A stretch of DNA of 32,000 nt from Pseudoalteromonas tetraodonis (GTDB lineage Bacteria; Pseudomonadota; Gammaproteobacteria; Enterobacterales; Alteromonadaceae): the NCBI RefSeq assembly GCF_002310835.1, contig NZ_CP011041.1, positions 1,290,001 through 1,322,000 of the forward strand, written 5' to 3'. Both the position numbers and the translations under genes were made by a program. This document shows, piece by piece, positions 13,679 through 31,873 of the stretch. Every line of letters starts with the position of its first letter. Positions within the stretch are counted from its first letter, which is position 1. The notes beneath the pieces are model-generated. The model was not told where the DNA came from and made no database searches. It saw only the letters and a list, made by a program, of their open reading frames with translations.

Positions 13679-13927
13679 ATGGCAAAAAAGCAAAAATCAA
13701 TTGAGGAAAAGGTTATGAAAGTACTAAAAGCTAACCCTCATTTTAGCTATCAAGAGGCTTGTAGGTTTGTTCTAATTGAAAGAGAAAATAATATAAAAAA
13801 ATTTAAAAAACAGAATACTAAAAAACTATTAACTAACAAAGTTAGCAATACCAAAAAGAAGAAAAAACCACAAAAACGAAAAGCAAGTATATGGACAGTT
13901 TCTGGTGGTGCAGTATCGCCAAAGTAA
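13679..13927 (+). CDS. Small lysine-rich hypothetical protein
   Basis: 82 aa; the C-terminal half is highly basic (KKFKKQNTKKLL...NTKKKKKPQKRKA). GGGATGGAA RBS-like tract upstream. No recognisable family. Confidence 0.45.
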   Translation: MAKKQKSIEEKVMKVLKANPHFSYQEACRFVLIERENNIKKFKKQNTKKLLTNKVSNTKKKKKPQKRKASIWTVSGGAVSPK

Positions 13928-13982
13928 CTTTTAGCCAAATATTAATTTAAAATTATAAAGATTTACAAGAGCATGAAATTGA

Positions 13983-14458: not shown

Positions 14459-16438
14459 ATGAATAAAGCTGAAGTGCACCGCAAAAAAGTTCAAGAAATC
14501 CTCGACGGCAATACTTTACATGGTCACCAAGTGAGTGCTGCCACAAAAACATTTAATGCATTCTCTAATGATGTGAGAGCTGTAGTAACAGCAGCTGAAA
14601 TGCAAGCTGGTAAATCTGGAATAGCGTTAGCTTTGTGTTGTTTGCAGCGTTTAAGCCTTGATGATGAAACAATTTGCCAAAAGCGCTCACTTAAAGACAC
14701 ATTATACTTAGTTACAATGCCAGATACGGCTTTGAGAGATCAAGCAGAAGATGATTTAAGACTTGCAAAGAATGTGGTTGTTAGTAACTTTGTTAATTTC
14801 GAAAAAGCCTTAGAAACAGATTTTAAAGGTAACCCTCCTAAATTAATCATCATCGACGAATGCCATTATGGTTCTAATGTTACCGGTATCCGATATAGCT
14901 CTGTGTTTGACTATCTAGAACAAGAAAATGACTCTTGCAAAGTAGTGTTTATCTCTGCGACACCTTTTGGCGCTCTATATGGTGCAGAAACAGAGTACGA
15001 AGAAGCGCTAGAGGCTAGTTCTGAAGCTGAGGAAGAGCATAACGACAAGCTGTTAAAAGAATCAACTCAAGCGGCGAGTCAAGCGCTTAAAGACTCTATT
15101 TTACGTCGTGATTTTGGTACTCGGTTGGTTTTTCATAAAACGAGTGATGAATACTACGGCGTACGGGAGATGCTAAAAAACAATCGCTTACACAATTTAA
15201 ATGACGAAGAAAGGAACTTCCTGGTTGACTCTGTACACCGCAAAAACTTTATGCAGCAATTCAATACTCATGAAGGCATGGGCTGGTCATTAGTTAGAGT
15301 TCCAGCAGGGACAGCAATGGATGCAAAGCAGTTCTTCATATCTGAAGGTGTTGATGAGGAAAATATTTATATACTAGGAAATTCACTTTCTGGAGTGCCA
15401 GAAGATGAGCTATCTACTATTGATAGGTTTAAAAAAGCATTTGAAGACAGTGAATTGTTTGGAGAAAAGTTAGTCGCGATTACAGTTGCAGGTTGCCGAG
15501 CAGGAATAAACTTCGGCAATTTAATGAAGAATAACCTTATTTCTACTTGGGATAGCACAGTTGCAAGTGTTGCTGCTGTTGTACAGGCTAATGTAGGTCG
15601 TGCGTGTGGGTATCACGGTAATAATACTTCAATGCACTTTACAAATGGGAATGCAGCTGAAGCCTATGGCGCTATATTGGATTACCTAGAACGCACATGC
15701 TCCGATCATGCTGCGTCTGATTTTGATGGCTTAAGAGAGTTTTTTGAAGACGTATGCCAAGAGTACCAAGTAAATGGTTTGGATGTAGGTTTAACAATAA
15801 AATATAAAAGGCGTAGGCCCATAGGTGATGTTGAAACATTCGAAACAGATCACTATGTAGCAGTACCAGCAAGGCTCCTGGACCAAGACTACGACTTTTC
15901 CCAGCATACCCAAGATAAGCTTCTTTTAAGTGCTATAACGGTCTTACGGGAAGAGTTTATTAAAAATGGAGCGCCGTCGGTAAAAGGTAGCAGAGCCATG
16001 CGAGGTAAAAAGAAAAACTGGATAAAAGCCCAGTGGGTTAATGGTGATAGCTATGATAATCCAGAAAAAGCTGGTGTAGACGGCCCTCAAAAAGATAGAA
16101 CAATAATGCTTACCAGCATGTTAGATAATGATGAATATGTTGAGTTTAATAGAGTCGTAGCCCCAGGCTCTGGGGAATTAACTGAGAATAAGTCAGTTAC
16201 AGCAACGGTGTTTAGCGTTTACAACATATCAAGACGTAAAGTGTCTAAAACAATAATGACGGAAAAAGATGTATGGGACATGTGTGATTATTTTGATATC
16301 CCTCATGACGATACTCTATTTGTATTATACAAGCGTGGTGAGTACGACTTTGATAGAACGTTAGCAAAAAAATCCCACAATGAGTTACCTGAAAAGTCAG
16401 GTACATTGAGTGACGAATCACAGTTTTCGGTTAAATGA
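14459..16438 (+). CDS. SF2 helicase-like ATPase, paralog 1 (DEAD/DEAH-type core + unknown C-terminal domain)
   Basis: 659 aa. Motif I is AEMQAGKSG (GKS at 14609-14617), motif II IIIDECHYG (DECH at 14855-14866), motif III FISATPF. Motif V/VI-like strings are AITVAGCRAGINFG and VQANVGRACGYH. AAGGAG RBS. Confidence 0.8.
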   Translation: MNKAEVHRKKVQEILDGNTLHGHQVSAATKTFNAFSNDVRAVVTAAEMQAGKSGIALALCCLQRLSLDDETICQKRSLKDTLYLVTMPDTALRDQAEDDLRLAKNVVVSNFVNFEKALETDFKGNPPKLIIIDECHYGSNVTGIRYSSVFDYLEQENDSCKVVFISATPFGALYGAETEYEEALEASSEAEEEHNDKLLKESTQAASQALKDSILRRDFGTRLVFHKTSDEYYGVREMLKNNRLHNLNDEERNFLVDSVHRKNFMQQFNTHEGMGWSLVRVPAGTAMDAKQFFISEGVDEENIYILGNSLSGVPEDELSTIDRFKKAFEDSELFGEKLVAITVAGCRAGINFGNLMKNNLISTWDSTVASVAAVVQANVGRACGYHGNNTSMHFTNGNAAEAYGAILDYLERTCSDHAASDFDGLREFFEDVCQEYQVNGLDVGLTIKYKRRRPIGDVETFETDHYVAVPARLLDQDYDFSQHTQDKLLLSAITVLREEFIKNGAPSVKGSRAMRGKKKNWIKAQWVNGDSYDNPEKAGVDGPQKDRTIMLTSMLDNDEYVEFNRVVAPGSGELTENKSVTATVFSVYNISRRKVSKTIMTEKDVWDMCDYFDIPHDDTLFVLYKRGEYDFDRTLAKKSHNELPEKSGTLSDESQFSVK

Positions 16439-16442
16439 GTCT

Positions 16443-18302
16443 ATGAATCAAGCAGAAAAGCACAGAGAGTATCTAGAGAAAATAGTATCTAGTGATACTT
16501 TCGAACATCAACAGCATGCTGCACAAAGAGCATTTAGCCATTTTGAAGAAGGTAGTCGTGCTGTTGTAATAACTGCTGAAATGCAATCAGGGAAGTCTGG
16601 TATTGCATTAGCATTAGCTGCTTTACAAAGACTTAGTCTATCAGATACAGATATTTGTGATCGCTCAAAATTAAAAGATACACTTTATTTAGTCACCATG
16701 GCTGATTTGTCGCTACAAGAGCAGGCCAAGCAAGATCTTACCAAATGTAATAATGTTGTTGTGAGTAACTTTACTAATATGAGTCTCGCACTCTCAAGTA
16801 ACTTTAAAGCCCAACCGCCTAAGCTCATTATCATAGATGAATGTCACTATGGTGCAGGTGCTGAGGCCGTTAGATATGCTAAAGTTTTTGAGTATCTGGA
16901 AAAAGAAAACACAAACTGTAAAGTTGCTTTTATTTCAGCCACACCTTTTAGCGCGCTTTACTCAGCAGGCGCAGAGTCTATTCTTCGTCACGACTTCAAA
17001 ACCAGTCTTGTTTTTCATAAAGCAAGTGATGAGTATTTGGGCATCAGGGAGATGCACCGCAACAACCAAATAGTAAAGTTAGCAGAAGAACAGCGTAACT
17101 TTTGTGATGACTCTTTACTACGTAAGCGTTTTATAAGGCAGTTCAAAGAGCACCGCTCATCTGGCTGGTCACTAATAAGGGTGCCAAGTAGTCAGGCAAG
17201 CCTAGCAAAAAGTATCTTATTAGAGAACGGTATAGCTGAAGAGCAAATTATGGTTATTGGCCAAAAGCTGGTGGGAGTTGAGGAAAGTGACTTAGCAAGT
17301 ATTGACGATTTTAAACGTGAATATGAAGCAGCAGCAATGTTTGACGATAAAGTCATTGCAATTACTGTTGCGGGCTTTAGAGCTGGCATTAATTTTGGTC
17401 AAGAAATGAAGAGTACGCTCATTAATACCTGGGATAGCACAATTGCTAATATAGCTGCAATTGTCCAGGCCAATATCGGGCGTGCTTGTGGCTATCACTG
17501 TAATGCGCAGGCCAAACACTATACTAACCTTGATGCTATTAAAGCTTACAGCGACTTACTTAATCACCTTGAATTAAATAGTGATAAAAGCGACTTCGAA
17601 GGTTTACATGCAGTTTTTGAAGATATTTGCGCTAAATATGATGTAAGAGGTTTTGATAGAGGGATTCAAATCTCACCAAATAAGGAATATACCACTTCTT
17701 CTCGGAAGAAAGATGATACTCAAACATATTTAACCCAAAGTTATTTATCGGTTCCAGGTAAGTTAACTACACCGAACTACGATTACTCAAAATACACCCA
17801 AAATCCTTTATTACTTGAGGCTATTGATCTGATCAGGGCAGAGTTATTAAAAGATGATGGCCCACACCGAAAGCAGGGTAGAGCCCTTAAAGGTGAAAAT
17901 CAAAATTGGATCAAAGCGCAATGGGTAAACGGTGTTACCTATGATGATTACACTCCAAGCTGTGCAAAAAGCAGAGCAATAGAATTCACTTCATTATTAG
18001 GTCAAGACCATCCATTAGAATTCAATAAAGTAGTTAACCCCGGTGGTGGAGAGACGACAAAAGATAAACGCGTTATGGCAAGTGTGTTTAGTGTATATAA
18101 CCTGTCTAAAAAAACTGATGCGTTTAAGCGTTCTATGGATGATGACGATTTGCAAGAGGTAAGTGAGCTATTGGGCGTTGAACTTGACGATACAATAATT
18201 TTATTGTTTTTACGCGGTGAATATTCTGATGATTTAACAGTAGCAAAAGAAGAGCAATCAAAATTAGTAGCGTCGAATCTTAAAGATAAATCTATATTTT
18301 GA
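16443..18302 (+). CDS. SF2 helicase-like ATPase, paralog 2
   Basis: 619 aa from the ATG at 16443, which is 4 nt after the paralog-1 stop. The N-terminus MNQAEKHREYLEKIV aligns with MNKAEVHRKKVQEIL of paralog 1. It has the same GKS (16590-16598), DECH, SAT and QANIGRACGYH motifs and is collinear over its full length. Confidence 0.8.
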   Translation: MNQAEKHREYLEKIVSSDTFEHQQHAAQRAFSHFEEGSRAVVITAEMQSGKSGIALALAALQRLSLSDTDICDRSKLKDTLYLVTMADLSLQEQAKQDLTKCNNVVVSNFTNMSLALSSNFKAQPPKLIIIDECHYGAGAEAVRYAKVFEYLEKENTNCKVAFISATPFSALYSAGAESILRHDFKTSLVFHKASDEYLGIREMHRNNQIVKLAEEQRNFCDDSLLRKRFIRQFKEHRSSGWSLIRVPSSQASLAKSILLENGIAEEQIMVIGQKLVGVEESDLASIDDFKREYEAAAMFDDKVIAITVAGFRAGINFGQEMKSTLINTWDSTIANIAAIVQANIGRACGYHCNAQAKHYTNLDAIKAYSDLLNHLELNSDKSDFEGLHAVFEDICAKYDVRGFDRGIQISPNKEYTTSSRKKDDTQTYLTQSYLSVPGKLTTPNYDYSKYTQNPLLLEAIDLIRAELLKDDGPHRKQGRALKGENQNWIKAQWVNGVTYDDYTPSCAKSRAIEFTSLLGQDHPLEFNKVVNPGGGETTKDKRVMASVFSVYNLSKKTDAFKRSMDDDDLQEVSELLGVELDDTIILLFLRGEYSDDLTVAKEEQSKLVASNLKDKSIF

Positions 18303-18381
18303 TTTTTTATAATGATCAATATTCAGATAACTATCAAACTATTTATTTTTCTAAGTAAAGCATGGGTTTAAAGGAACTAGC

Positions 18382-20400
18382 ATGGATGAAAAAACGTTAA
18401 GCTTTATTGAGAAGGCACAGTCAGTTCATGGAGATACTTATTCTTATAATAAATCCATTTATACCGGTAGTAATATAAAATTAACTATTACTTGCAAGCA
18501 CCATGGTGACTTTGAACAAACACCATCAAACCATTTCAAATATCATTGTTCTAAATGCTCAAAAGGGGCTCAAAATAAAGCTAAATTAGAGAAGGCTTCT
18601 GCAGTATACTTAGATAAGGTCATAGCTGTTCATCACGATAAATATGACTTATCAAAAGTAAACTATACAGGGGCCAAAAATAAAGTAACAGTAGCGTGTC
18701 TAGAGCATGGCTTATTTGAAATAACAGCTCAGCACTTTTTAGCTGGTAGTGGGTGTAAACAATGTGGAAATAAAAATACAAGATTAAAAACTATCGATAC
18801 AGCTTCTAAATCTTTTGAATCAAAGGCTAGAAAGATCCATGGGGATATGTTTGATTATAGTAAAGTAAACTACAAGGGGACCACTACAAAGGTTACAATA
18901 ACCTGCCCAGAGCATGGGGATTATATGCAAACACCTCGCAAACACCTAGAGGGTTCAGGTTGCCATAAGTGCGCAATAGATAACTCTGTTTCAAGGCTGT
19001 CTACCAGTGTATTTATAGAAAGAGCAAAAATAGTACATAAAAATAAGTACAACTATGCAAAAACTCAATTTACTAAGTCACATGAAGGTATAATTATCAC
19101 CTGTGAAGAACATGGTGATTTTTCACAAAATCCACATAATCACTTAGCTGGCGCGGGTTGCAAACTCTGTGCTAATGAAAAAATAACCTACACTACAGCT
19201 GAATTCATAGACCGAGCCAATAAGAAGCATAGCTCTTACTACTCATATGAAAAAACAGAGTATGTTGCGTCAAAAGTTAAAGTATTAATTACATGTCCTA
19301 CTCATGGCTTATTTTATCAGAAACCAATACTACATTTACAAGGTTATGGGTGTAATCGTTGTGCGGCTATTAAACGTGGTAAAGACAGCAGCTCATCAAC
19401 CGCTGAATTTATACAATACGCAAATTTCATACATGATTTTAAATGGAATTATGACAAAACAAAATATATAAATAACCATACAAAAGTAATAATAACCTGT
19501 GATACGCATGGTGACTTTGAGCAAACACCTGGAAGCCATAAAAGTGGCAAAGGTTGCCCTAAATGCGGAATTATTAAGTCTACTGAGTCTGGAAAGGTAA
19601 AATATGAAGAGTTTTTATTAAGAGCTCAAAATGTTCATGGTGACAAGTATTTGTATGACTTAGTTAAATATTCTACATACGGTGAAAAGGTTAGTATAAA
19701 GTGCTTACTGCATGGTGTTTTTAATCAATCACCGACTTCACATATTAGAGGAGCAGGGTGCCCAACATGTGGTTTAGAGTCTTCTAGAGAAAAACAGAGA
19801 ATTCCATATAACGTCATACTAAAGAAAGCAAACGAAGTCCATAACTTCAAATATAGTTATGCTGAATGTAGTGATGAAAATTCAGAACGTAAATTACTCG
19901 TCTATTGTCCGGTACATGGAAAATTTGAACAGAAAATTGATGCTCACCTTAAAGGAATCGGTTGCCCAAAATGCAGTTGCATTAAGCGTAATATGCAGAC
20001 AGAAGAATTTATAGACAGAGCTAATGCAATACATAGAGGAAAATATGGCTATGAGTATGTTGACTGTAATGGCACTAAAAGAATACTAAAAATTGAATGC
20101 TATAAGCATGGTATATTTGAGCAAGTAGCTTCTCAACATTTAAAAGGCAGCGGTTGCAGAGACTGCTATGTGGATTCAACAAAACTTACCCTAGAAAATT
20201 ACCTTAAAGATTGTAAAAAATTACATGGTGATAAATATGGCTATTCTAAATTAGAATATAATACTATCAGAGACAAGGTCATTATTACTTGTCATACCCA
20301 TGGTGATTTCCTCCAAACAGCTCATGATCATAAACATGGCGGAGGGTGCCCCAAATGTGCTGAATATTTTAGAAATTTAGACAATAAAGACCCTGATACT
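18382..20400 (+). repeat. Ten tandem coding repeats (64-75 aa each) inside the zinc-ribbon/nuclease gene
   Basis: Repeat boundaries by residue are 1-75, 76-144, 145-210, 211-274, 275-342, 343-410, 411-478, 479-542, 543-606 and 607-673. Each keeps the C-x2-H ... H-x4-C-x2-C ligand set. They are diverged at the nucleotide level. Confidence 0.85.
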
Positions 20401-20709
20401 CCTTGTCACATATATTATTTGCAACTAAAAACAGAGCACCTTATTTTTTATAAAGTAGGCATAACAACGAAAAGCGTAGAAGAACGTTTTTATCGTTTGA
20501 AGAAAGATAATACCAAAATTTTGGATCAACTTAGTGCCCTGACAACTCTTGATAAAGCCATTGTTGCCGAACAAACCATATTAGAAGAGTTTGAAGAACA
20601 TAAACTCTTAATGTCAGATACTTTGGTGTTAAGTGGAGGTGGAACCGAGTGTTTTGCTGATGATGTATTAGGGATGCATGGCTTAGAATTAGAAGACTAC
20701 ATTACCTAG
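18382..20709 (+). CDS. Protein of ten zinc-ribbon repeats fused to a C-terminal T5orf172/GIY-YIG-like nuclease domain
   Basis: 775 aa. Residues 1-673 are ten modules with the pattern F(I/L)xxAxxxHGxKYxYxxxxYxxxxxKVxIxCxxHGxFxQxPxxHLxGxGCPxC. Residues 674-775 read PCHIYYLQLKTEHLIFYKVGITTKSVEERFYRL...AEQTILEEF...GGGTECF, which is GIY/YIG-R-E-like. AAAGGA RBS. Confidence 0.8.
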   Translation: MDEKTLSFIEKAQSVHGDTYSYNKSIYTGSNIKLTITCKHHGDFEQTPSNHFKYHCSKCSKGAQNKAKLEKASAVYLDKVIAVHHDKYDLSKVNYTGAKNKVTVACLEHGLFEITAQHFLAGSGCKQCGNKNTRLKTIDTASKSFESKARKIHGDMFDYSKVNYKGTTTKVTITCPEHGDYMQTPRKHLEGSGCHKCAIDNSVSRLSTSVFIERAKIVHKNKYNYAKTQFTKSHEGIIITCEEHGDFSQNPHNHLAGAGCKLCANEKITYTTAEFIDRANKKHSSYYSYEKTEYVASKVKVLITCPTHGLFYQKPILHLQGYGCNRCAAIKRGKDSSSSTAEFIQYANFIHDFKWNYDKTKYINNHTKVIITCDTHGDFEQTPGSHKSGKGCPKCGIIKSTESGKVKYEEFLLRAQNVHGDKYLYDLVKYSTYGEKVSIKCLLHGVFNQSPTSHIRGAGCPTCGLESSREKQRIPYNVILKKANEVHNFKYSYAECSDENSERKLLVYCPVHGKFEQKIDAHLKGIGCPKCSCIKRNMQTEEFIDRANAIHRGKYGYEYVDCNGTKRILKIECYKHGIFEQVASQHLKGSGCRDCYVDSTKLTLENYLKDCKKLHGDKYGYSKLEYNTIRDKVIITCHTHGDFLQTAHDHKHGGGCPKCAEYFRNLDNKDPDTPCHIYYLQLKTEHLIFYKVGITTKSVEERFYRLKKDNTKILDQLSALTTLDKAIVAEQTILEEFEEHKLLMSDTLVLSGGGTECFADDVLGMHGLELEDYIT

Positions 20710-20733: not shown

Positions 20734-20760
20734 AAAAGCCGTTCTACTTGAACGGCTTTT
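20734..20760. terminator. Bidirectional rho-independent terminator
   Basis: AAAAGCCGTTC (20734-20744), loop TACTT, GAACGGCTTTT (20750-20760). The A-run and T-run flanks suit both convergent units. Confidence 0.8.
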
Positions 20761-20952: not shown

Positions 20953-21669
20953 TTATGTTGAATTACCTATACCGGCTATACGCTCTAAGGACGCGCGATT
21001 ATACTTTTTGCCAAGTAGAGCGTCAATATCACTTACATTAAAGTAAGGCTTTTCTTTTGTTCCATCAAGGTTTTTTTCCATAAAAATAATATCTATATCA
21101 TCCTTGAAAATATTTTTTAATTCGCTGACCACACGTTGAGACTCTAAGAACTGATTTACAAAAACCTCAGGTGGAACCCTTCTTCCTTCAACTATTTCGC
21201 GAGCCTTTACTAAGCACCAAGCTTGTTCGGGATCTTGATAAACAAATATAACCAAAACGTAGCGATCTTTACGTAAAGAACGTTCAATATTCGACTTTGC
21301 CTTTTCAAAACTTGAAAGCGTAGAGTCGAGTAAAAAACTAACCTTTTTCTTTAAAGCTCTGTCATGTATTGCTTCCACTAAAATAGTTGCAGGTGTTTGA
21401 AATAGCGGAGAGTTTAACCCCTGGTAGTCATCAAACTCCTTTCTTAGTTCATCATTTTCTATGTGAACAACATCAACCCCATGCTCTTTTTTAAATTGCG
21501 AAATAATACTTTTAGCAGTCTCTGTTTTTCCTGCACCAGGGGAGCCCGCCATAAAAACAGATACAGCACTTTCTTCTTCTGGCAAATGATCAATCATACT
21601 TTTGGCAAGGGTTTTCTTCATTGCTTTAGCTTTAACTAGCGCTTTTTTTGTAATTTCTTCATCTGTCAT
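20953..21669 (-). CDS. Zeta-toxin-family P-loop kinase-like protein
   Basis: 238 aa. Walker A is FMAGSPGAGKTE, followed by VVHIENDELRKEF (the zeta/PezT-type D-x-x-R region). The size and layout are typical of the zeta toxin domain. Confidence 0.7.
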   Translation of the reverse strand: MTDEEITKKALVKAKAMKKTLAKSMIDHLPEEESAVSVFMAGSPGAGKTETAKSIISQFKKEHGVDVVHIENDELRKEFDDYQGLNSPLFQTPATILVEAIHDRALKKKVSFLLDSTLSSFEKAKSNIERSLRKDRYVLVIFVYQDPEQAWCLVKAREIVEGRRVPPEVFVNQFLESQRVVSELKNIFKDDIDIIFMEKNLDGTKEKPYFNVSDIDALLGKKYNRASLERIAGIGNST

Positions 21670-21763: not shown

Positions 21764-22984
21764 TTAGGTCATCCCCCAAAACTCAGATTTAATATCATCA
21801 GCATTATTGTTTTTATATATGTTTTCACTTATCAAGTAAGCTTGAGATTGATTGTTATTAACCATAAAGTGCTTATCATTCTTTTTATAAAGCTTAAATG
21901 CATAGTGGTATTGGCTTGAATATGTCGCAGTAGCTGAAAATACATTGGTGATATTATTTTTCGCTATAAATTGAAAAATAGCTTGAGCGACATAGTTTAA
22001 TCTTTCATCCCGGCCCATATTCATTGTAAACATTGAATGCGAACCTTGATCATCAAATGCAACAAATATCTCAATGACTTCATTTGAATCTTTAAAGATA
22101 AAGTTAACTACTCTACCGTCTAGCTTCATATCACCATCGTTATCAATTTCATATAGGTGGGAGGTTTCATTATTAACATACATAACCTCACCATTTTTAA
22201 CGATAAACATTATATCGACTTCAGCTTCTACTAGCCTCATTCCACCATTGTAATTGATCTTCTGATTGCTAATTTTATTAACGGTCTTAGAAGACTTGCT
22301 TATTGAAATTAATTTATTAAGTATTTTTGTTCTAATTTCAAACATTTTCTGCGGGTCACGGCTGAAGCAACAAAGAATGCCTTTAAAAAAGACAAAAGCC
22401 TGTTGAGTACTACTAGTTTCAGTAACATTTACAAACTCAGAATGATCAATACCGCAATTTAAAGCATACTCTTGGTGTACTCCACCCATTTCTTCAAGCT
22501 CTTTTATCTCCTCATTCACAAAGTGCTTAATAGCATTAAAATCGTTTTTTAAATGTGTATTACTTAAAACTTCAGCCCAGCGAGTTGTAAAATGCTCGAA
22601 GCCATCACTCGCTAGTTGCCCTCTAATTTTATCGCCATTTTGTTCTTCAAAGCTCAGAAATAGCTTTATTCGCTCTAGGTTTTGTAAAGCCATCGGAGAT
22701 GCATGCCCATCATCGAGAGATTGCTTCTTTTGTTCCATATTTATAACTTTAAGGTAATCATCATATGCCTCGAGATATCTCTCTTGAATCGCATAGCAGT
22801 TAGCTCTATTTAAATATACGTTTGAATGGTTTGGGCTGACTTCAAGTGATTTTGTAAAGAATAAAATAGCGTCATCTTGATTGCCATATTGATGATACTG
22901 AAGTGCTTGGCGAAAGAATTGTTCACCTTGGGCTTCTGCCTTAGGGTCCGTTTTAATTCTTGAGAAAAAGCTAAATAGAGACAT
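21764..22984 (-). CDS. TPR-repeat protein with uncharacterised C-terminal domain
   Basis: 406 aa. The N-terminus FFRQALQYHQYGNQDDAILFFTKSLEVSPNHSNVYLNRANCYAIQERYLEAYDDYLKVI is 2-3 TPR units; the remainder is unrecognised. An AAGGAA RBS lies in the 25-nt gap after the upstream gene. Confidence 0.7.
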   Translation of the reverse strand: MSLFSFFSRIKTDPKAEAQGEQFFRQALQYHQYGNQDDAILFFTKSLEVSPNHSNVYLNRANCYAIQERYLEAYDDYLKVINMEQKKQSLDDGHASPMALQNLERIKLFLSFEEQNGDKIRGQLASDGFEHFTTRWAEVLSNTHLKNDFNAIKHFVNEEIKELEEMGGVHQEYALNCGIDHSEFVNVTETSSTQQAFVFFKGILCCFSRDPQKMFEIRTKILNKLISISKSSKTVNKISNQKINYNGGMRLVEAEVDIMFIVKNGEVMYVNNETSHLYEIDNDGDMKLDGRVVNFIFKDSNEVIEIFVAFDDQGSHSMFTMNMGRDERLNYVAQAIFQFIAKNNITNVFSATATYSSQYHYAFKLYKKNDKHFMVNNNQSQAYLISENIYKNNNADDIKSEFWGMT

Positions 22985-23009
22985 ATTATTTCCTTATAAT
23001 AAGGTTGAG

Positions 23010-23915
23010 CTAAAAGCAGTGCGAAAGAGCATACTGTCGATTGTGAAAGTAAGTATTATTGATTTTAAAATCGGTATTTGCTAATAACTCGCTAGGTTTA
23101 TCCAAATATATTGATTGGATATATTCTTTTGGAATATGACTATTAACGAGAATTTCGGCTTGTGAGTCAGTAGGGTCACAAGCTCGTAAATTGATAGGTT
23201 GATTATTAAAAAGCTGTTTTAATGCCACACTTCCTGAAAGGGATGCCTCAGTTGCTGATGCTATAGAAGAGCTAGCAGCATTTGCGGGGCAAAATAAGCA
23301 GTCAAGCTCCCATAAAACACGGGCAGATATTTCTAACACAGCCCAGCTTTCTTCTGGTTGTGCTTGTCTATACTTATAAAACATCTTGTCGTTAGGGTAG
23401 GACACAGATAACGAAATCATGTGAGTTCTGTAGTCAAATCGATTAGCATCGTTGTAAATATGACCTTTAGATATTTCGTTATTATAATCTTTACTATTAA
23501 GGCCTATATCCAAAATGCTTTTAAGGTTTTTCACTTTTGTAAAGTGTATTAATGTAGTAATTCCACGCTCGCTACAAAATTGCTTAATAAGCTCTTTATC
23601 ATCAATATTCGCATATTTACCTAATCCATAATGCTTCATTACGGCATCAATTAATTCAAGACGTAATGAAATAGTATTTTGATAGCTGCCTAAGTCAGCT
23701 ATTAAAGTTGAAAACAGAATGTTAGGGCTATTTAACTCCAGCAGTGGCATCTCAGTCTTTAGTTTTACACCACTGGATTTAGCAAAATTACGAACCAGGA
23801 GAGAGCTTTTGTTAGCGAAAGATAATTCATTTACTACAAATTCAGCTGCAATAGCTGGAGTAGGTAAAAGGGCTAATGTCTTGTTTAACATTGGCTCAAA
23901 CATATTAATTTCCAT
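23010..23915 (-). CDS. DarT (DUF4433)-like ADP-ribosyltransferase domain protein with ~115-aa N-terminal extension
   Basis: 301 aa. The ordered motifs are LIHFTKVKNLKSILDIGL, MISLSVSYPNDKMFY, WAVLEIS...CLFCPANAAS and DPTDSQAEILVNSHIPKEYIQSIYL. These correspond to the H-x-T..NL.SIL, (F/Y)-rich, NA and QAE-x-LV motifs of DarT. Its ATG abuts the upstream TAA. Confidence 0.65.
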   Translation of the reverse strand: MEINMFEPMLNKTLALLPTPAIAAEFVVNELSFANKSSLLVRNFAKSSGVKLKTEMPLLELNSPNILFSTLIADLGSYQNTISLRLELIDAVMKHYGLGKYANIDDKELIKQFCSERGITTLIHFTKVKNLKSILDIGLNSKDYNNEISKGHIYNDANRFDYRTHMISLSVSYPNDKMFYKYRQAQPEESWAVLEISARVLWELDCLFCPANAASSSIASATEASLSGSVALKQLFNNQPINLRACDPTDSQAEILVNSHIPKEYIQSIYLDKPSELLANTDFKINNTYFHNRQYALSHCF

Positions 23916-24605
23916 TTAAATAAATAAATCCTTTTGTACAGGGGAGGCGCAACTTCCGATGCTTTGGCTTAAGTGAGCTATAAACTCATCAGCAGAGCGA
24001 GTAACTTGTTCTAAAGTGCCATTCTTGACTAAAGAAACATATAAAGCAGCTGCTCTAGCCTGGCAATTAACGCTTTTTTTAGGGTTAAATTCAATATCAG
24101 TAAACGCATTATATTGAATAATTTGAGAGTGTAGTTCTTTGTTTAATTTTAAAGCATTAATGTAAATCCAATCATAAAATACAGTTTTAGGTGTGAGTGG
24201 CCAGGTTTTTCCATTACTAAAAAAGCCAGTTAAACAGCCGCTCTCAACTAAACGGCTATCTCGTTTAACTTCATGTGTCGGAATTGTTAGAAGCTCTTTA
24301 AAAGGGCCGCCATTTTCAAACACTTTAGATGCATGAAAAATATTCTCCAGTGGAACTTCGCGACCATTTTTTAATGTAACGATCAAATTGAAAGCACTTA
24401 GGCTTATACCCAAGGTACTCTCACTTTTTGTAGAGATCTCAAGTACATTTAAATCATTAAACAAGTTATGCGCAGCGTTATGTAAAGAGCGAACAGATTT
24501 TTGCTTTTGTGTGGCTGCCATTCCTTTATGCCATTCAAAGTCAATAAGCTCTTCCTGTACATAAGGAAACGGCTTAATCACTTTAAAAACGGGTCTAGTA
24601 GCCAC
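23916..24605 (-). CDS. Hypothetical 229-aa protein, candidate partner or antitoxin of the DarT-like protein
   Basis: A GTG start at 24603-24605, 10 nt after the pglZ stop. No macrodomain-like motifs are visible. The string LSAFNLIVTLKNGREVPLENIFHASKVF is only faintly NADAR-like. It is tightly coupled to the downstream gene. Confidence 0.6.
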   Translation of the reverse strand: MATRPVFKVIKPFPYVQEELIDFEWHKGMAATQKQKSVRSLHNAAHNLFNDLNVLEISTKSESTLGISLSAFNLIVTLKNGREVPLENIFHASKVFENGGPFKELLTIPTHEVKRDSRLVESGCLTGFFSNGKTWPLTPKTVFYDWIYINALKLNKELHSQIIQYNAFTDIEFNPKKSVNCQARAAALYVSLVKNGTLEQVTRSADEFIAHLSQSIGSCASPVQKDLFI

Positions 24606-24615: not shown

Positions 24616-26670
24616 TTAGGGTGTTGTTATGTTAATTACGGGGGTTAAGCACTCTTGTATGCTTAAGCCACCATGGTTGTAATAATCACCAGCCACATAA
24701 CCTGCAATACCAGGAGCCATGGCTACAGAGACGTTTTCGTTCCAATGCCATGGTACTTTTAATTCGTCAGTGCTTACATTGTCTTTTAAAATAGCACAGC
24801 GGGCTAAGCGTTTTTTAACCTGATTTTTTGGAATGTTTGCTTCAGCTAATTTACCTGGCACCCATAACCAACCGTGGTCGGTCACAATGCGTATATTTTT
24901 CCAGCCAGCAGCTATTAAGCCTTCAATACGGGTGACTACATCATTTAAGACGCTATCAATATAGCGCGGCATTTTTAGCTGTTGCTTATGCCCCATATTG
25001 TCTAAATCGCCAGTTTGCAGCCATGCATTTATAGATGGGTTGCCAGTATCTAACTCTTTTAAAAACTGCCAATCTTTTTTTCCTAATGCACTACTTAAGT
25101 GATAAGAGCTAAACTCAGAGCCAGACTCGGTTATCTGGGGAATAAAGTTATCGTTTTCTTGAGCGCCACTTAAAATATCGGCCACAGGCGTTACGGCAGC
25201 CTTAGCAGTTGCTGTTAATGAGGGCAGGGCACACCAATTACTTGTTAAATTAACATTTATGTTTAATTTACTAAGCTTATTCTCAAGCATTTTTGCAGTA
25301 TCAAAACGTAGTCCATCAACAAAAAACACAGCTTGGCCGTTGGTGTTATACGTTGCGGTCGACTCATTTATTTCACCGGCACTACTTGGTTTACCTGGGT
25401 AGCCTTCGTCCTTTACTAAGCGTTGAAAGTTCAACGTAACAGCTTCAAGCCAGGGGGTATAAATTACTGCCAGAATATCAGCAACTACTTGCTCCTGGTT
25501 TAAATCAGTAGCAGCAGCCATTGCGTTAATTGCTGCCGCATCTGCTTGCCAGAACCGCTCTTTGTAGGTTTGTGCCATTGCTTCTGCATTTGGGCCTGTA
25601 AAATTAATCTGAGTATGTTTAGCAACGTATTCTAGTTGCTCTAATATATTTAGCCAAGGCGACATACCTAGCTTTTGCCACAGCCAGTTTTTACGCTGTT
25701 CATGTAATTTATACAAGGCAGTTAACTGCTGCCTTAGCTCGGTTGGCGTTACACTGATAATGCTAGCTAATTTATTTGCTAATTCAGCTTCATCTTTTAA
25801 ATTTTCAGATAAAAAATGGCTAGCCTCAAACGCTAAACCAGTAGGAGCTATAGTTTTAAGCTTTTCAACTAAACAAGGTAGATTGTGTGCGGTGTCTTTA
25901 AATCGCTCCCAAACAGTATACCATTCGCCTTCAGCCTCACATAAGCTGTAGATAATAGCGCTTATATCGCTTATATCATCAGGGTCAAAGTTAAATTGGC
26001 TTATACAGGCTTGTTTAAATACAGGCCATTTATTTTCATCCCAAGCTTGCTTTTTTGCTTCGGGGTTATTTAACCAAGCTAGAATATCTTTAGCCGGGTC
26101 ATCCATTACAATGCTTATAAAGTCTTGGGCTTCTAGCTTTTTACCTTTTAATTGCTCAGCTGGCGTTTCAAGTAAATCGGGTAGAATATTGAGTATGGCT
26201 TCTTGCGTTTTTTTGTCTTTGGCAACATCAAGCTCTAATCCCACACGCGGGTTTGTTAAAAATGAGCCAACACTCCAATCCCTACCTGCAGAGTTGTAAG
26301 CCCACCAGCAGCCTCTGTATTGCAATTCGGCTAAAGGTCTTAATTCATCAGGGCATTGCTCTATTGCACGTAAGTCTTTGCGGCCAACACCTGGTAAATA
26401 AATTATCGGGGTTTTATCTTTTGTTAATTCACAGTCTTCCAATACCCCAGCTATCGCACATTTAATCCAAATAGCAGGGCCTATGCGCTCCTCTGGACAA
26501 TAAGTTCCTAGCTCAATGAGCTCAGGTAAATGTTGTTTTATAAACGGCATAGCAGGTTGCCACTGGCATTCAATATCAGTCCACAAAATAGCAGCAGGTG
26601 CAACTTGCACCGCTGAATTATAGGTTGCTGAGCTTCGCAGTTGCGAAGCTAGGTAATCAATTAATTGCAT
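24616..26670 (-). CDS. pglZ: BREX PglZ (alkaline-phosphatase superfamily)
   Basis: 684 aa. FFVDGLRFD (25300-25326) and IVTDHGW are the PglZ-domain metal-site motifs. The N-terminal AILWTD...WQP region and the position downstream of pglX fit BREX. Confidence 0.85.
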   Translation of the reverse strand: MQLIDYLASQLRSSATYNSAVQVAPAAILWTDIECQWQPAMPFIKQHLPELIELGTYCPEERIGPAIWIKCAIAGVLEDCELTKDKTPIIYLPGVGRKDLRAIEQCPDELRPLAELQYRGCWWAYNSAGRDWSVGSFLTNPRVGLELDVAKDKKTQEAILNILPDLLETPAEQLKGKKLEAQDFISIVMDDPAKDILAWLNNPEAKKQAWDENKWPVFKQACISQFNFDPDDISDISAIIYSLCEAEGEWYTVWERFKDTAHNLPCLVEKLKTIAPTGLAFEASHFLSENLKDEAELANKLASIISVTPTELRQQLTALYKLHEQRKNWLWQKLGMSPWLNILEQLEYVAKHTQINFTGPNAEAMAQTYKERFWQADAAAINAMAAATDLNQEQVVADILAVIYTPWLEAVTLNFQRLVKDEGYPGKPSSAGEINESTATYNTNGQAVFFVDGLRFDTAKMLENKLSKLNINVNLTSNWCALPSLTATAKAAVTPVADILSGAQENDNFIPQITESGSEFSSYHLSSALGKKDWQFLKELDTGNPSINAWLQTGDLDNMGHKQQLKMPRYIDSVLNDVVTRIEGLIAAGWKNIRIVTDHGWLWVPGKLAEANIPKNQVKKRLARCAILKDNVSTDELKVPWHWNENVSVAMAPGIAGYVAGDYYNHGGLSIQECLTPVINITTP

Positions 26671-26679: not shown

Positions 26680-28470
26680 TCAAATACTAGGTAATTTAAA
26701 GAGCTCAACTACTTTAGATACTAAAAGTTCTGTTCTATTTTTGATTTTATCAACAGACCAGCTGGTTTCCGAAGCTAATTTACTATTTAGATACAGACCG
26801 TTTTTATATCCAACCGGGTTGCCTTTCCGATTTGTTCTATCACGTTTCTCTTCGAAGCTCTTATTACCTAATGTGCTGTTGTAGCCTGAAATTGTAAGAT
26901 TCCCTAAATAGTGAACATATTGTTGTTTGTATGTTTGGGCTAGTTCTTTGTCACCATTAGCTATCATATTAACCCAAGACTCAGGTATGTTGTCACCCTG
27001 CGGGAATATATGTTCAATTGTCCAAACATATTGTTTGCCCTCAATTGCCCATAAATTAACGGTTGATTCCCTTGTCATTACACTCTCTTCAATGGCACAA
27101 AGAGCAAAACGACATACCGCTTTATTATCATCATATAGGTTGCCAGATAGCCCTTTAATAAAGTCTTCATCTGATGCACTTACATTTACTAATGACTTAC
27201 AAATAAGGTCATAAATCGCATCACCTTTTAGCTTTGTAGCCTCATCAGAGAGGGACATAAATATTTTTGTTAAATCTCTCGTGGCAGGTGTATCTGTAGT
27301 ATTCCTACGCACAAAAAAAGCAATTAACAAAGTAACAATTTTTTCAAAATGTTCTGATTTCAACTCTAGTGTTTCTTGTTTACTAAACAGTAGGAGTAAT
27401 AATAGATACGATGGAACACCCTGAATGTTTTCTAAGCTAGACAGCAGTCCTGTTAATTTAGGGTTATCCGGAACTTCTTTATTGCCAATAATTTGCGCGT
27501 ACAAATTAGCATGCACCATCATTGTTTTTAAGAAACTGCTAGCATCATTGGCGATCAGTTTTTCGTAAATATGAATAAGGTTAGATTTAGTCGCAACAGG
27601 AACACTAACAATATGCTTTAATTCAGGTTTAAATGCATTGTAGTACTGCCTAAAATATCGTTCTTGTATTCCATAATCATCACCAAGATAAGCTAATACT
27701 TTCATCCAATTATTAAAGTGCTTATCTATTTGCCCTGCATCATCCGACTCAAGTTTTGCCAACAACTTGTTTTTTATTAAATCAATAGCAGTAAGTGGTA
27801 CCCCTCTGTTATTCAAAGATTCAAACAAAGTATATGCATCAGAATGACTAGCCACTTCAATTTTCACTAAGGTGGCTGTATTTACTTTATCTATTAACTC
27901 AGAAAGCGCTGCAAGCTGATCGGTAGCTTGATATAAAACGTCGTCTATCCTTCTACAAAAATGTCTAAAAGCTCGCAATACACGTCGATTTCCAGCATTT
28001 GAGATATGTTCAGCATTTTCTAAAATACCGGCTTGTTTAAGCACCCAAAAATAATCCTGTTGATTGTTATTTTGAACTTGAGGCGTTAGACGAGTCAGCT
28101 CTGGGGAGTTTTTTAATATTAGTTTATTTTTTAAGTTATAAAGTTCTATCTGTTGCGGCATATCGAGAGTTAACTCTAAGTTGCCATAACACTTGTAGAT
28201 AGCTGCCATTAACAAAGATAAAGTAGTCATTCTTTGCTGGCCATCTACTAATTCTAGTTCCTGGATCTTTAATGAATCTAAACTTTGATTTATGCAGATA
28301 ATAGAACCTAAAAAGTAGCTTGGATCATTTTCAAGTAAGTCTTCAAAAAGAGTATCCCATTGTATTTTCCCCCATGTATATTCACGTTGATACCTAGGGA
28401 TGTTATATACAACCGCTGCTTCAATATTAAATAAAGTCGAAACAGGGTAGTTATCAACGGACTTAATCAT
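26680..28470 (-). CDS. brxU: GmrSD-family type IV restriction-like enzyme (DUF262 + DUF1524), BrxU-like
   Basis: The N-terminal DUF262/ParB-like strings are IPRYQREYTWG, FLGSII and VDGQQR (28231-28245). The C-terminal His-Me finger is WTIEHIFPQ...YLGNLTISGYNSTLGNKSFEEK. The ATG at 28468-28470 overlaps the pglX stop by 8 nt (ATGATTAA); the track start at 28503 is an alternative. Confidence 0.8.
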   Translation of the reverse strand: MIKSVDNYPVSTLFNIEAAVVYNIPRYQREYTWGKIQWDTLFEDLLENDPSYFLGSIICINQSLDSLKIQELELVDGQQRMTTLSLLMAAIYKCYGNLELTLDMPQQIELYNLKNKLILKNSPELTRLTPQVQNNNQQDYFWVLKQAGILENAEHISNAGNRRVLRAFRHFCRRIDDVLYQATDQLAALSELIDKVNTATLVKIEVASHSDAYTLFESLNNRGVPLTAIDLIKNKLLAKLESDDAGQIDKHFNNWMKVLAYLGDDYGIQERYFRQYYNAFKPELKHIVSVPVATKSNLIHIYEKLIANDASSFLKTMMVHANLYAQIIGNKEVPDNPKLTGLLSSLENIQGVPSYLLLLLLFSKQETLELKSEHFEKIVTLLIAFFVRRNTTDTPATRDLTKIFMSLSDEATKLKGDAIYDLICKSLVNVSASDEDFIKGLSGNLYDDNKAVCRFALCAIEESVMTRESTVNLWAIEGKQYVWTIEHIFPQGDNIPESWVNMIANGDKELAQTYKQQYVHYLGNLTISGYNSTLGNKSFEEKRDRTNRKGNPVGYKNGLYLNSKLASETSWSVDKIKNRTELLVSKVVELFKLPSI

Positions 28471-31400
28471 TTTTAGCTTCCTTTGCTGCTTTTTTCTCGG
28501 CAAGTGTTAGGTGATGGTCATTTATACGGTCGCCTTGCTTGCCGCCATATTCTAAGCCTAAGTCATACCAAGGAGCTGACGCTACATCGGTGCCGCGGTC
28601 TTTTTTCCAGTGAATATTGGGTTTTGAACGCAAAATGCCAGCGTCTTTTTTACCTACATCTTTCGTTTTCATGAATGGGCGAATGTTCAGACGAACACCG
28701 TCATTTAAGTCTGGGTTCCAGCCGATAGGTTGCTCTGCTAGCGGCTTCCAGCGAACAAAGATATCCAGGCCTTCTTCACCAACCAAAATACTTTCAAGCT
28801 GTTTTCTTAGGTTTCTAGCGGCAGCTAAACGTATTTCAGCGCCTTCATCGCCATCTTTTTCTAATTGAATCTGGGTGCTAATCCAGTCATCAAGGTAGGT
28901 GTAAATTAAACGCTCTAAACCTTTATAATCGAGCATGTGATAATTTACTAATGCAGAAAACCCATCGGGTAAGCCATCCCATATTTGCCAAATGAATGGG
29001 CGATGTTGAAATAGTTTAGAATGTTGTTCGAAAAATTTATCACGTAGCCAAATGTTTAAGTCGCGAGACTTAACGGACTTCAATAAATTATTTAAGACGG
29101 TAGCAGACCATTTATCGCCATAGGCTGCATGCAAAATGGCTTCTAATCTATCAACCGCTGGTTTTTCACCGCGTATTGCAGGAATACAAACAATACCGTC
29201 ATCATCGATCAAACCATCAAACACATTGTTTTGGGCTATGACTTCACGCATTTCAGGTGCTAATTCTATTTCCGTGTCCAGCTCCGCTGGCCATCGGTAA
29301 CCTAATAGGCGAGCAACAGCGATTTGCAGAACGGTCTCGTCTACACGTAGCTCATTTATCGCTGTTGTTTTTGTTTCTTCATCCCAAATTACAGAAGCAC
29401 AAGGGTGTCCGTGAAAAATCCATTGAGTGGAGTCACTACTAAACGGCTGAGATAAAATACTATCATTGAGTACTTTAGCTTGCTCATTCCAGTGCTTTTT
29501 GTCGAAAGGAACTTTTAACAAGGTTGCATTTGTTACACTTCTTTTTTTGTCTAGTTTTCTGACATTTGTGATGTATGTGTTGCTTCCACAATAAGCTAAT
29601 AATGCGTCTAAGTCATTTTCATTTTTAGGAAAAATAACACTAACGCTGGCATCAAACTTAGATCCGCAATAGGCTGAGGTATTTAAACCTTGTTCATTAA
29701 TAATAATGCCTTTACTGTCCCACGCTAGATTCCCAGATTCATGCATATCATGCAGTTTATGTCTATTCTCTCTAGCATATTTAGCGAGCTTTCCATGTCC
29801 TTGCTCCCAATAAATTACATCAAACATTCCTCCCCACGTATCACTTTTTGCATTTGGTGTTCTTAGATAGTCCCAACAAGTAGCATTAATGTCCACCTCC
29901 CAGGTTTTTCTGACAAATTGATCTTTGTCACCAGTTCGAAGTCCTTGATAGCAAAAAGCGTCGTCAGAAAGTGGGCTTGACGAGTCAACAGGCTCATACA
30001 TTATTCTAGAATCAGGATTTCCAACTTGTTCTGATTGTGACAATAGCTTAATTACATTTTGTTTTAAGCTATTCTTTTTTGAGTCTATTACTTGTTCCGG
30101 GGAAACATCAAAGGCCGCTAGCTTACCATCATTATTACTACTATTAGCTAGAGAAATTAATATGGGTGAAACTCCTATTGGTGTTTCAAATGACTTGTCT
30201 CCTAGCCAAGCTAAAACGTCGATACTCACCTGATTTAGTAATTGATTTCTAAAATCAGTGTAACTAGTTAAGAATAACCAATTTTGAGGTAAAACTAGAG
30301 AAACGACTCCATTACTTTTTGAAAACTTAAGGCAACGCGAAATAAAAACAGTCTCTAACGCACTTTTTTCTTTTTTGTAATATTTTTCGATAAAGTCTTG
30401 AAGAAATTGACAAAGCTCTCCTTTAGTTTTGTAGGGAGGGTTTGTTGATATTAAATCATAAGCCTTTGTTAGTACTTCTGCGGCTTTAATTAGCCCATTC
30501 GCAGTTGCTTTAGCATCATTACTGACTTTGGTGTGGTTAGTGACTGCTGCTTGTAGTAAAGACCACGGTTGTGTACTTTCATTTTCCGAAGTTGGTTTTG
30601 GTTTTATCAAACTACCAAGGCTAGGCGCATTTTTAAATGTTTCTTGCATCCAATTAATAGCACTTTTAAGCTCATCATTGTCTTTCGCTACGTCTTTCCA
30701 TTCTTTTTGGGCTTCACTAATAGACAAACCTGAACAAGCAACTTGTAACTCAGGCAATTGACGGTAACCACCAGAATTAGGATAACGCCAAGCTTCAAGC
30801 GCTAAAGCAAATGCCGCTAATTCTACACAGCGTTGGTCGAGTTCTAAACCATGAATATTTTGAGCTAGTACTTTATCAATTGCTTCTTTTGCAGTTAGCT
30901 TCTCTAGCTCCATTCGTATTGGCACTAGCATTAAGAATTTGGCTACTAAAAAGTGGCCTGAACCACAACAGGGATCGAGAGCTTTAAATTCACTTAAATT
31001 ATCTGGCCATTTATCAAAATCACCTGCGGCACAACGCCATACTTTTGATTTTTCATCTTGAACAAAACGTAAATACTCAAGTGGTACGCCGGGAATAGAG
31101 GCTAGATCTCGCAGCTCTTGCTCGCTAGATGCAGTCGCTAGGTCATCTTGTGTTAAGCGTCGTTTAGCCCACCATGCGCCAAGGGCGTTGTCGAGTAAAA
31201 AGCTCACCATATAAGGTTCGGTGAATAGCTGCGTCACCGGGCTTAGTTCTTTAGCGCCAATTTTTACGCCAGATTCGTTAACTTGTTTTTTCTTTTTGTT
31301 TTGCCAAAATTGATAACACCAACCAAGTGCGTCTGATGCTTGAAAGGTATCAGGGTGCAAGTTTGCAATGAGTTCTTCTAACGCTTGAACATGGTTTATC

Positions 31401-31873
31401 GAAAGTTTAACGTCGAACACAGGCGAATCAGCTCGGAATATTTGCGGCAACATCTCTTGCGCTAATTGACCGGCTAATTCCCATCCGTCTTTAATATCTG
31501 GCTCTTCTTCAGCAAGTTCAAAGCACTCTTTTAGGGTGACTTGGGTGTATTGGTCATACATTAACAGGTCACTTTGTTCTAAAAAACGCGCAAACAACAT
31601 ACGGTGCCAATGTTCGTAGGCCATTTCGTTAACAAGCAATTCTGTTTCTTGTTTGCCTGTATCACGATTTAACACATCACCTAATTGACGGCCGTGGGCA
31701 CGTAAACGTGTTCTAAGCTTTCGTTCTGCATCGCTTAAATAGTTCGGTGCATTGCCCTCGCCAATACCTAGACGAGTAAGCGCCTCGGTAACCGCGACTT
31801 CAACAATGTCACGGGCTTTTTCTACTGTTTTTTCAAGCTTGCCGCGTAATGTTTTATCTAATGGTGTTCTCAT
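28463..31873 (-). CDS. pglX: BREX PglX N6-adenine DNA methyltransferase
   Basis: 1136 aa. The SAM-binding motif I is LDPCCGSGHFLV (DPCCGSGHF at 30950-30976) and catalytic motif IV is NPPY (30431-30442). The large size and the N-terminal helical region ending in YQFW are typical of BREX-1 PglX. Confidence 0.9.
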   Translation of the reverse strand: MRTPLDKTLRGKLEKTVEKARDIVEVAVTEALTRLGIGEGNAPNYLSDAERKLRTRLRAHGRQLGDVLNRDTGKQETELLVNEMAYEHWHRMLFARFLEQSDLLMYDQYTQVTLKECFELAEEEPDIKDGWELAGQLAQEMLPQIFRADSPVFDVKLSINHVQALEELIANLHPDTFQASDALGWCYQFWQNKKKKQVNESGVKIGAKELSPVTQLFTEPYMVSFLLDNALGAWWAKRRLTQDDLATASSEQELRDLASIPGVPLEYLRFVQDEKSKVWRCAAGDFDKWPDNLSEFKALDPCCGSGHFLVAKFLMLVPIRMELEKLTAKEAIDKVLAQNIHGLELDQRCVELAAFALALEAWRYPNSGGYRQLPELQVACSGLSISEAQKEWKDVAKDNDELKSAINWMQETFKNAPSLGSLIKPKPTSENESTQPWSLLQAAVTNHTKVSNDAKATANGLIKAAEVLTKAYDLISTNPPYKTKGELCQFLQDFIEKYYKKEKSALETVFISRCLKFSKSNGVVSLVLPQNWLFLTSYTDFRNQLLNQVSIDVLAWLGDKSFETPIGVSPILISLANSSNNDGKLAAFDVSPEQVIDSKKNSLKQNVIKLLSQSEQVGNPDSRIMYEPVDSSSPLSDDAFCYQGLRTGDKDQFVRKTWEVDINATCWDYLRTPNAKSDTWGGMFDVIYWEQGHGKLAKYARENRHKLHDMHESGNLAWDSKGIIINEQGLNTSAYCGSKFDASVSVIFPKNENDLDALLAYCGSNTYITNVRKLDKKRSVTNATLLKVPFDKKHWNEQAKVLNDSILSQPFSSDSTQWIFHGHPCASVIWDEETKTTAINELRVDETVLQIAVARLLGYRWPAELDTEIELAPEMREVIAQNNVFDGLIDDDGIVCIPAIRGEKPAVDRLEAILHAAYGDKWSATVLNNLLKSVKSRDLNIWLRDKFFEQHSKLFQHRPFIWQIWDGLPDGFSALVNYHMLDYKGLERLIYTYLDDWISTQIQLEKDGDEGAEIRLAAARNLRKQLESILVGEEGLDIFVRWKPLAEQPIGWNPDLNDGVRLNIRPFMKTKDVGKKDAGILRSKPNIHWKKDRGTDVASAPWYDLGLEYGGKQGDRINDHHLTLAEKKAAKEAKND

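Follow-up and report, generated by a model that had tools for sequence, protein, structure and literature searches.

The window analysed here is a stretch of 32,000 nucleotides (nt) from Pseudoalteromonas tetraodonis (contig NZ_CP011041.1, positions 1,290,001 to 1,322,000 of the forward strand). It carries two adjacent, paralogous genes for helicase-like proteins of superfamily 2 (SF2), termed HelA and HelB, which converge on the genes of a bacteriophage exclusion (BREX) system. It is fairly probable that HelA-HelB forms a heteromeric SF2 motor and stands in for BrxL in an undescribed BREX-1 type-B variant. The narrower proposition, that HelAB is the restriction-phase motor of an unclassified BREX-1 subtype (type-B short PglZ, no BrxL) and an obligate heterodimer with a C-terminal fold unmatched among solved and viral predicted structures, is evenly balanced. 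A sequence-only reading of the window had joined the two helicases and the gene that follows them into one helicase-nuclease module; the helicase pair is real and unnamed, but its grouping with the nuclease did not hold, and the pair goes with BREX instead. The features on which the argument turns are as follows (aa: amino acids).

14459..16438, plus strand: HelA, SF2 helicase-like ATPase, 659 aa; an open reading frame (ORF) with a weak N-terminal Pfam match to ResIII/DEAD
16443..18302, plus strand: HelB, paralogue of HelA, 619 aa; core from aa 1 to ~380, C-terminal domain at ~385-619
18382..20709, plus strand: third gene, 775 aa; ten DUF723/treble-clef zinc-ribbon repeats and a C-terminal T5orf172 (GIY-YIG-like) domain; variable cargo
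20734..20760, no strand assigned: GC-rich hairpin, bidirectional terminator of the converging units and right border of a cargo slot
24616..26670, minus strand: PglZ, short form of BREX-1 'type B', 684 aa (PADLOC PglZ 6e-258, NCBI names)
26680..28503, minus strand: GmrSD-family (BrxU-like) type IV restriction enzyme between pglX and pglZ (Pfam GmrSD_N, GmrSD_C)
28463..31873, minus strand: PglX (BrxX), BREX methyltransferase (PADLOC PglX E = 0)

The association with BREX emerges from comparative gene maps. One genome per species was scanned, giving 32 loci (numbered with the prefix L) in which the window proteins were mapped and all ORFs clustered. Of these 32 species-level loci, 28 have HelA-HelB upstream of a pglZ that converges on it. 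For a second count, 69 metagenome loci were pooled with the genome loci and the search for a downstream pglZ was limited to those with a flank of at least 5 kb beyond the second helicase gene; of the 64 loci that qualified, 63 carry a pglZ in convergent orientation. The distance between helB and pglZ is below 300 nt in 34 of 71 loci, the minimum being 11 nt. In the recurring order, helA and helB are followed by zero to four variable genes and then, on the opposite strand, by pglZ, by GmrSD, a HEC-06/Orf5-type gene, a HEC-01 pair or nothing, and by pglX, brxC and brxB. The region 5' of HelA is entirely variable between loci. The core genes brxA, brxB, brxC, pglX and pglZ are clustered, which is the definition of a type 1 core, and their products match the respective PADLOC models end to end (in L006 and L034, BrxC E = 0, BrxB 6e-72 and BrxA 2e-100). 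Beyond the end of the window, BrxC, BrxB, BrxA and BrxR follow, as seen in contig L034 (GCA_007991235.1), which has an exact PglX match; marine metagenome copies also share an exact PglX match. The identities of HelA and HelB to their window counterparts track that of PglZ (Spearman 0.81 and 0.74, respectively, n = 28).

The gene that these loci lack is brxL: tblastn with the BrxL of L036 found it in 0 of 93 loci. A reciprocal test, anchored on PglZ, brought out two forms of that protein, since matches with at least 51% identity are ~680 aa long and those with 46-48% identity are 772 aa long. Many of the shorter ones lie on contigs equal in length to contigs that gave HelB matches. Short PglZs (678-683 aa, 51-63% identity) from Photobacterium damselae, Rahnella and a metagenome (L038, L039, L113) are accompanied by convergent HelB and HelA; no BrxL (BrxL_N, BrxL_ATPase, Lon_C) follows pglZ in these three loci, nor in L034 on either side. 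In the sister clade with long PglZ (772 aa, 47% identity; L036, L037, L112), a canonical brxL with the same three domains starts one base after pglZ, and HelAB is absent. HelAB and BrxL are mutually exclusive between the sister PglZ clades. HelAB is not a stand-alone module beside BREX, as the sequence-only reading had placed it, but the one gene set that always accompanies the BrxL-less BREX clade.

The two forms of PglZ are collinear to ~aa 680, and the BrxL-linked form (P0379 was compared) is ~95 residues longer at the C terminus. The type-A PglZ of Salmonella ends in a β-barrel extension (PMC12205998), of which the segment missing from the short PglZ might, by analogy, be the counterpart. 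According to a 2026 survey, BrxL occurs in only 74-76% of type-1 BREX systems, and SF2 helicases replace it in other types, namely BrxHII (Snf2) in type 5 and BrxHI (Ski2/Lhr-like, with BrxD and BrxE) in type 6 (PMC12839542). The SXT/integrative and conjugative element (ICE) BREX systems that were checked all have BrxL.

Aligned from end to end, HelA and HelB have 48% identity (BLASTP E = 0). Both groups carry the motifs by which SF2 is defined, namely I (GKS/T), II (DExH), III (SAT) and VI (QxxGR). The sequences GKS, DECH, SAT, QANxGRACGYH, NWIKAQWVNG and FSVYN are present in both proteins and invariant or nearly so across orthologues; the longer forms common to the paralogues are AEMQxGKSG, IIIDECHYG, SATPF and VQANxGRACGYH, with PGxGE and FSxYN in the C-terminal region. 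In 27 genome loci a HelA orthologue lies directly 5' of HelB. Across these loci, identity is 71% among HelA proteins, 64% among HelB proteins and 49% between the two, and both paralogues retain the ATPase motifs (Walker A, DECH, SAT, QANxGRACGYH). HelA differs in that its motif III is followed by an acidic insert of ~33 aa, which is conserved. This agrees with the earlier view of the two helicases as a conserved, duplicated SF2 unit. Judged from the protein sequences, the duplication is an old one, with both paralogues kept; an old duplication in which both copies are always retained and adjacent would be the expected appearance of an obligate heteromer, and HelA and HelB may pair physically.

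The other features described in the sequence-only reading (the ORFs, the spacings of 4 and 79 nt that separate helA from helB and helB from the third gene, the repeats and the terminator) are likewise all present. The longest ORF for HelB starts at an upstream GTG (16410); the spacing of 4 nt holds because the orthologues begin at the conserved ATG at 16443.

In the AlphaFold2 model of HelB (predicted local distance difference test, pLDDT, 78) an SF2 core is apparent, the best Protein Data Bank (PDB) matches by Foldseek being RadD, MDA5/LGP2 and DEAH helicases. The resemblance is that of a generic core (Foldseek E 4e-7 to 1e-4, template modelling (TM) score ~0.3); the Snf2-family remodeler RSC (6tda) ranks 11th among the structural neighbours. 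Sequence and profile searches of the PDB with the helicases returned only RadD and the N-terminus of a type I R subunit. The most conserved stretch of the family, aa 332-360 of HelB (window ~17436-17522; WDSTxAxxAAxVQANxGRACGYH, which includes motif VI), is also the least confident segment of the model (pLDDT ~40), and Pfam Helicase_C gives no match; the second RecA-like domain is therefore atypical. Modelled alone, the C-terminal domain reaches a pLDDT of 90 and a predicted TM score of 0.79. Foldseek searches of the PDB and BFVD with it returned nothing below E = 0.4, and Pfam and profile searches were also empty, in keeping with the earlier statement that this region carries no recognisable motif. 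Faint rows for herpesvirus alkaline nucleases (probability 0.01-0.03) do not constitute evidence for a PD-(D/E)xK fold.

The following mechanism is proposed. HelA and HelB would be the two subunits of a heteromeric SF2 ATPase or DNA translocase, belonging to a BREX-1 clade ('PglZ type B', with short PglZ) that has presumably lost BrxL. The locus has brxR-brxA-brxB-brxC-pglX-(cargo)-pglZ-(cargo) on one strand, and helA-helB converge on them from the other, as far as a terminator common to both. If BrxL, BrxHI and BrxHII are a guide, restriction at unmethylated BREX sites would owe its ATP-driven engagement of DNA to the pair, which would interact with the BREX core; the C-terminal domain could contact DNA, the core, or both. 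HelAB would be dispensable for methylation by PglX. In the case of BrxHII, methylation does not need the helicase (bioRxiv 10.64898/2026.04.28.721311).

Comparison with known BREX helicases and motors helps to place the pair. BrxL, which occurs in BREX of types 1 and 4, is an MCM-like AAA+ ring with a Lon-like C-terminal domain, and its gene comes next after pglZ in the sister clade, which belongs to the same PglZ type-B family. It assists the BrxABC-PglXZ core by engaging DNA in an ATP-dependent manner, as is proposed here for HelAB. No homology links the two: BrxL is the product of one gene, read in the same direction as pglZ, and assembles into an AAA+ hexamer or heptamer, whereas HelAB consists of two SF2 paralogues, convergent with pglZ and with an unrelated C-terminal domain. 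A further comparison is with BrxHII (Swi2/Snf2; type-3 and type-5 BREX) and BrxHI (Ski2/Lhr-like; type-2 and type-6), which are SF2 helicases standing in for BrxL. PADLOC includes models for both. At E <= 0.1, neither HelA nor HelB is recognised by any PADLOC model, these two profiles included. Unlike BrxHII, they show no SNF2/Helicase_C Pfam match and have neither a TUDOR nor an inactive restriction endonuclease domain; unlike BrxHI, they are without DEAD_assoc/Lhr-type Pfam domains, winged helix-turn-helix, HAS-barrel and Lhr C-terminal domain. They also differ from both in being a duplicated pair (except in L008, where HelA is missing), and neither BrxD nor BrxE was found in any HelAB gene map. 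The N-terminal RecA-like domains are best matched by RadD (E. coli YejH) and by ResIII-type cores (type I/III R subunits). The match to RadD concerns the generic motor only (~15% identity, TM ~0.3); the zinc finger and C-terminal domains of RadD are absent from HelAB, and the C-terminal domain of HelAB has no counterpart in RadD.

With respect to other helicase-containing defence systems, PADLOC returned 0 families for the three proteins encoded at 14459-20709, which covers Hachiman, Gabija, Nhi, Zorya ZorD and Druantia DruE; the assertion that the helicases belong to no named system holds for the systems in PADLOC. No HamA, GajA or PLD partner occurs in the conserved neighbourhood. A literature search, made mostly without subscription papers, did not find the HelAB pair described, and an earlier description is possible.

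The third gene calls for separate treatment. Its repeats follow the pattern C..HG..Q...H....C..C (nine by regular expression and one more at ~aa 105-128) with a repeat length of 64-68 aa, and Pfam recognises DUF723 (8e-13) and DUF4379 (7e-12). The T5orf172 assignment (PF10544, aa 677-741) is marginal, at E = 4.4e-4 and 21.1 bits against a cut-off of 20. Matches to PHROG 681 'endonuclease' (E = 1.8e-141, mostly via the repeats) and PHROG 559 (3.4e-110) are strong, and tblastn found the family in 1,201 phage records, at up to 13 places per genome. The protein shares its repeat-plus-nuclease design and its sporadic distribution with phage T5orf172/GIY-YIG homing-type endonucleases (PHROG 681/559, DUF723); it differs from them in sitting in a bacterial defence island and in its marginal Pfam T5orf172 match. 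It resembles free-standing homing-type endonucleases, with cleavage and homing as putative activities. A second DUF723/CapR zinc-ribbon repeat protein (465 aa, 24% identity) is encoded just outside brxR at L034:2786-4183, so that zinc-ribbon repeat genes occur at both ends of the BREX-plus-cargo region.

The idea that HelA, HelB and this protein form one three-gene helicase-nuclease defence system, as the sequence-only reading had proposed, finds some encouragement in the common strand, the close spacing and the common terminator in the window, and in the same arrangement in L001 and L044. Among ~100 related loci, however, these three, which are closest relatives, are the only ones to hold the nuclease gene. 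The island in L043, whose integrase, TerB, PDC-M09A/B, CxxC, HelA and HelB proteins are 89-94% identical to those of the window, has in the same place a small ORF that shows no similarity to the nuclease gene and looks Sel1-repeat-like by eye. The window and L043 cease to be homologous at 18247 and match again from precisely the terminator onwards, at 20734; in L043 the slot is occupied by another ORF rather than empty. The GC content of the nuclease gene region is ~0.345, against 0.38-0.41 for the helicase genes. Restricted distribution, the swap in L043, a phage family and lower GC together indicate that the nuclease gene is swappable cargo and not a partner of the helicases. Its multicopy presence in phages and its sporadic occurrence at the slot are in keeping with the behaviour of an independent homing element, which the sequence-only reading had itself named as a point against its module. 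A three-gene system is accordingly most improbable, and in the mechanism outlined above this gene would be a separately acquired, phage-type homing-endonuclease-like cargo placed in a slot between helB and the terminator.

Several observations weigh against a function of HelAB within BREX. The pair lies on the strand opposite the BREX operon and is consequently a separate transcription unit; unrelated cargo of up to 7 kb can lie between HelAB and pglZ; L027, the one exception to the linkage, has no pglZ within 10 kb (its 10-kb flank contains Zeta, a PsyrTA-like pair, an integrase and a group II intron); and L008 is without HelA, pglZ there being broken as well. The co-divergence with PglZ could partly come from shared island history rather than function. 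In addition, distant single-copy relatives (27% identity, same C-terminal domain) are found away from BREX in Photobacterium (L040:10001-11977, L041:10001-11965), with further ones in Vibrio and Enterovibrio by annotation. They occur alone in small variable insertions, one of which adjoins an MspI-like endonuclease and a C5 methylase, and they imply that the fold can work without BREX; they may be the stand-alone ancestral form. The convergent orientation, the separate terminator, the intervening cargo and these relatives speak for a reading in which HelA-HelB is an autonomous two-gene helicase system for defence or DNA surveillance that co-travels on the same mobile islands and has no role in BREX. 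Salmonella BREX, moreover, is able to defend without BrxL (PMC12205998), so that a BrxL-less BREX need not have a replacement. This main rival explanation is nevertheless rather unlikely, as the linkage persists where PglZ identity ranges from 44% to 95%, and in Gamma- as well as Betaproteobacteria, while integrases and cargo turn over, the exclusion of BrxL between sister PglZ clades is strict, with the C-terminal extension of PglZ lost at the same point, and no clear case of a HelAB pair lacking BREX came up.

It could also be argued that HelA-HelB serves the mobile island, in replication, excision or repair, rather than defence: an integrase lies directly beside HelA in L001, L003, L004, L005 and L038, and the closest solved structure is a repair helicase, RadD. 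Such integrases are absent from most loci, though, and belong to different families (25-92% identity), whereas the link to BREX does not vary; the neighbourhood has no other conserved genes for replication or transfer, and the resemblance to RadD (Foldseek E = 4e-7, TM ~0.3) does not go beyond the generic SF2 core. A service function for the island is therefore improbable.

The interest of a motor that substitutes for BrxL lies in the unsolved question of how BREX stops phage replication. The role of BrxL is debated; it is an effector in E. coli and Acinetobacter, and dispensable or regulatory in Salmonella. If the proposed substitution is true, a dimeric SF2 helicase has taken over from a ring-shaped AAA+ translocase around an unchanged BREX core, which amounts to a natural experiment on the needs of the effector step. 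A clade that keeps BrxA, BrxB, BrxC, PglX and PglZ, swaps BrxL for an SF2 pair and trims the C-terminus of PglZ would be a tractable comparator. Should HelAB be needed for restriction and not for methylation, what the core requires would be some generic DNA motor driven by ATP, not the specific architecture of BrxL. Current tools probably score HelAB-BREX loci as incomplete or 'other' BREX.

The comparison also maps two slots, pglX/pglZ and pglZ/helB, that gather other defence genes. The pglX/pglZ junction, compared in the window, L002, L017 and L022, can hold a GmrSD/BrxU-like gene, another GmrSD-type gene (PADLOC Orf5/HEC-06), a HEC-01 pair (PARIS-like ATPase and DUF4276), or nothing. On the other side of pglZ, the slot into which the third gene is inserted is bounded by the hairpin at 20734-20760 (-16.3 kcal/mol, z = -6.45 against shuffles), with runs of A and of T at its flanks; a simple terminator scan did not list it.

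The helicase family itself is narrow, judged from its sequence relatives. Detectable homologues of HelB number 417 and come chiefly from Vibrionaceae, Shewanella, Pseudoalteromonas, Yersinia and further Gammaproteobacteria; a search of 1.84 billion cluster representatives gave 362 proteins at E <= 0.001, and about six 50%-identity clusters have the full-length HelA/B architecture. Searches of PADLOC, Pfam, NCBIfam and PHROGs assigned HelA and HelB to no named family and gave weak N-terminal matches of ResIII/DEAD/RadD type only. The Pfam family cpSF2-GREB1 was considered for the helicase and rejected, the match being sub-threshold (23.5 bits, cut-off 26.2) and confined to the region of motifs I-II. 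Five HelB orthologues (P0039, P0046, P0081, P0088 and P0402, from Vibrio, Yersinia, Salinivibrio and Photobacterium) are named 'glutathione synthase' in databases, a name that no detected domain backs. No family member was found in IMG/VR viral contigs, and a search of a plasmid collection returned one mislabelled Aeromonas chromosome and one distant match. The copy in Escherichia sp. ESNIH1 (L015) gave no match by megablast against complete E. coli genomes.

The surroundings of the pair agree with the location in a defence island that the sequence-only reading had assigned, with PDC-M09, DarT/NADAR, GmrSD and BREX genes on either side. The island is inserted at a tRNA-Ser(GGA) gene (7107-7196), which is adjoined by a tyrosine integrase (7383-8624; Pfam Arm-DNA-bind_3, Phage_int_M and Phage_integrase); 7107-8624 is probably the attachment site and the left end of the island. 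Related islands have other integrases or none. Downstream of the helicases, the minus strand encodes in turn Zeta, TPR, DarT, NADAR, PglZ, GmrSD and PglX. The neighbouring features that complete the map are the following.

8963-12610, one-strand block upstream of the helicases: TerB-domain protein, PDC-M09A/B and CxxCxxCC protein
20953..21669, minus strand: Zeta-toxin-like P-loop kinase (Pfam Zeta_toxin 1.4e-33), recurrent pglZ/HelB cargo
21764..24605, minus strand: cassette of TPR protein, DarT and DarT1-associated NADAR antitoxin (Pfam)

The PADLOC candidate pair PDC-M09A/B in the first block is matched at 3.6e-30 and 5.8e-19; the block is also present in L043 and absent from other HelAB loci. 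The TPR/DarT/NADAR cassette is shared with L001, L003, L009, L043, L048, L050 and L093. Of 93 loci, 15 have the Zeta-like kinase between pglZ and HelB, always co-directional with pglZ; in L038 (12049-12756) the kinase gene begins right at the stop of pglZ and has a small ORF of ~52-54 aa behind it. It may be a further BREX-linked accessory or part of a toxin-antitoxin pair.

Just 5' of HelA, at 13679-14372, lie two small ORFs, one for a lysine-rich protein of 82 aa and one for a protein of 129 aa, which match no family; copies 75% and 86% identical, respectively, occur in L044 and in no other locus. Towards the start of the window, seven tandem tRNA-Lys(UUU) genes (4804-5745), spaced by ~140-145 nt, precede nadA (5896-6936).

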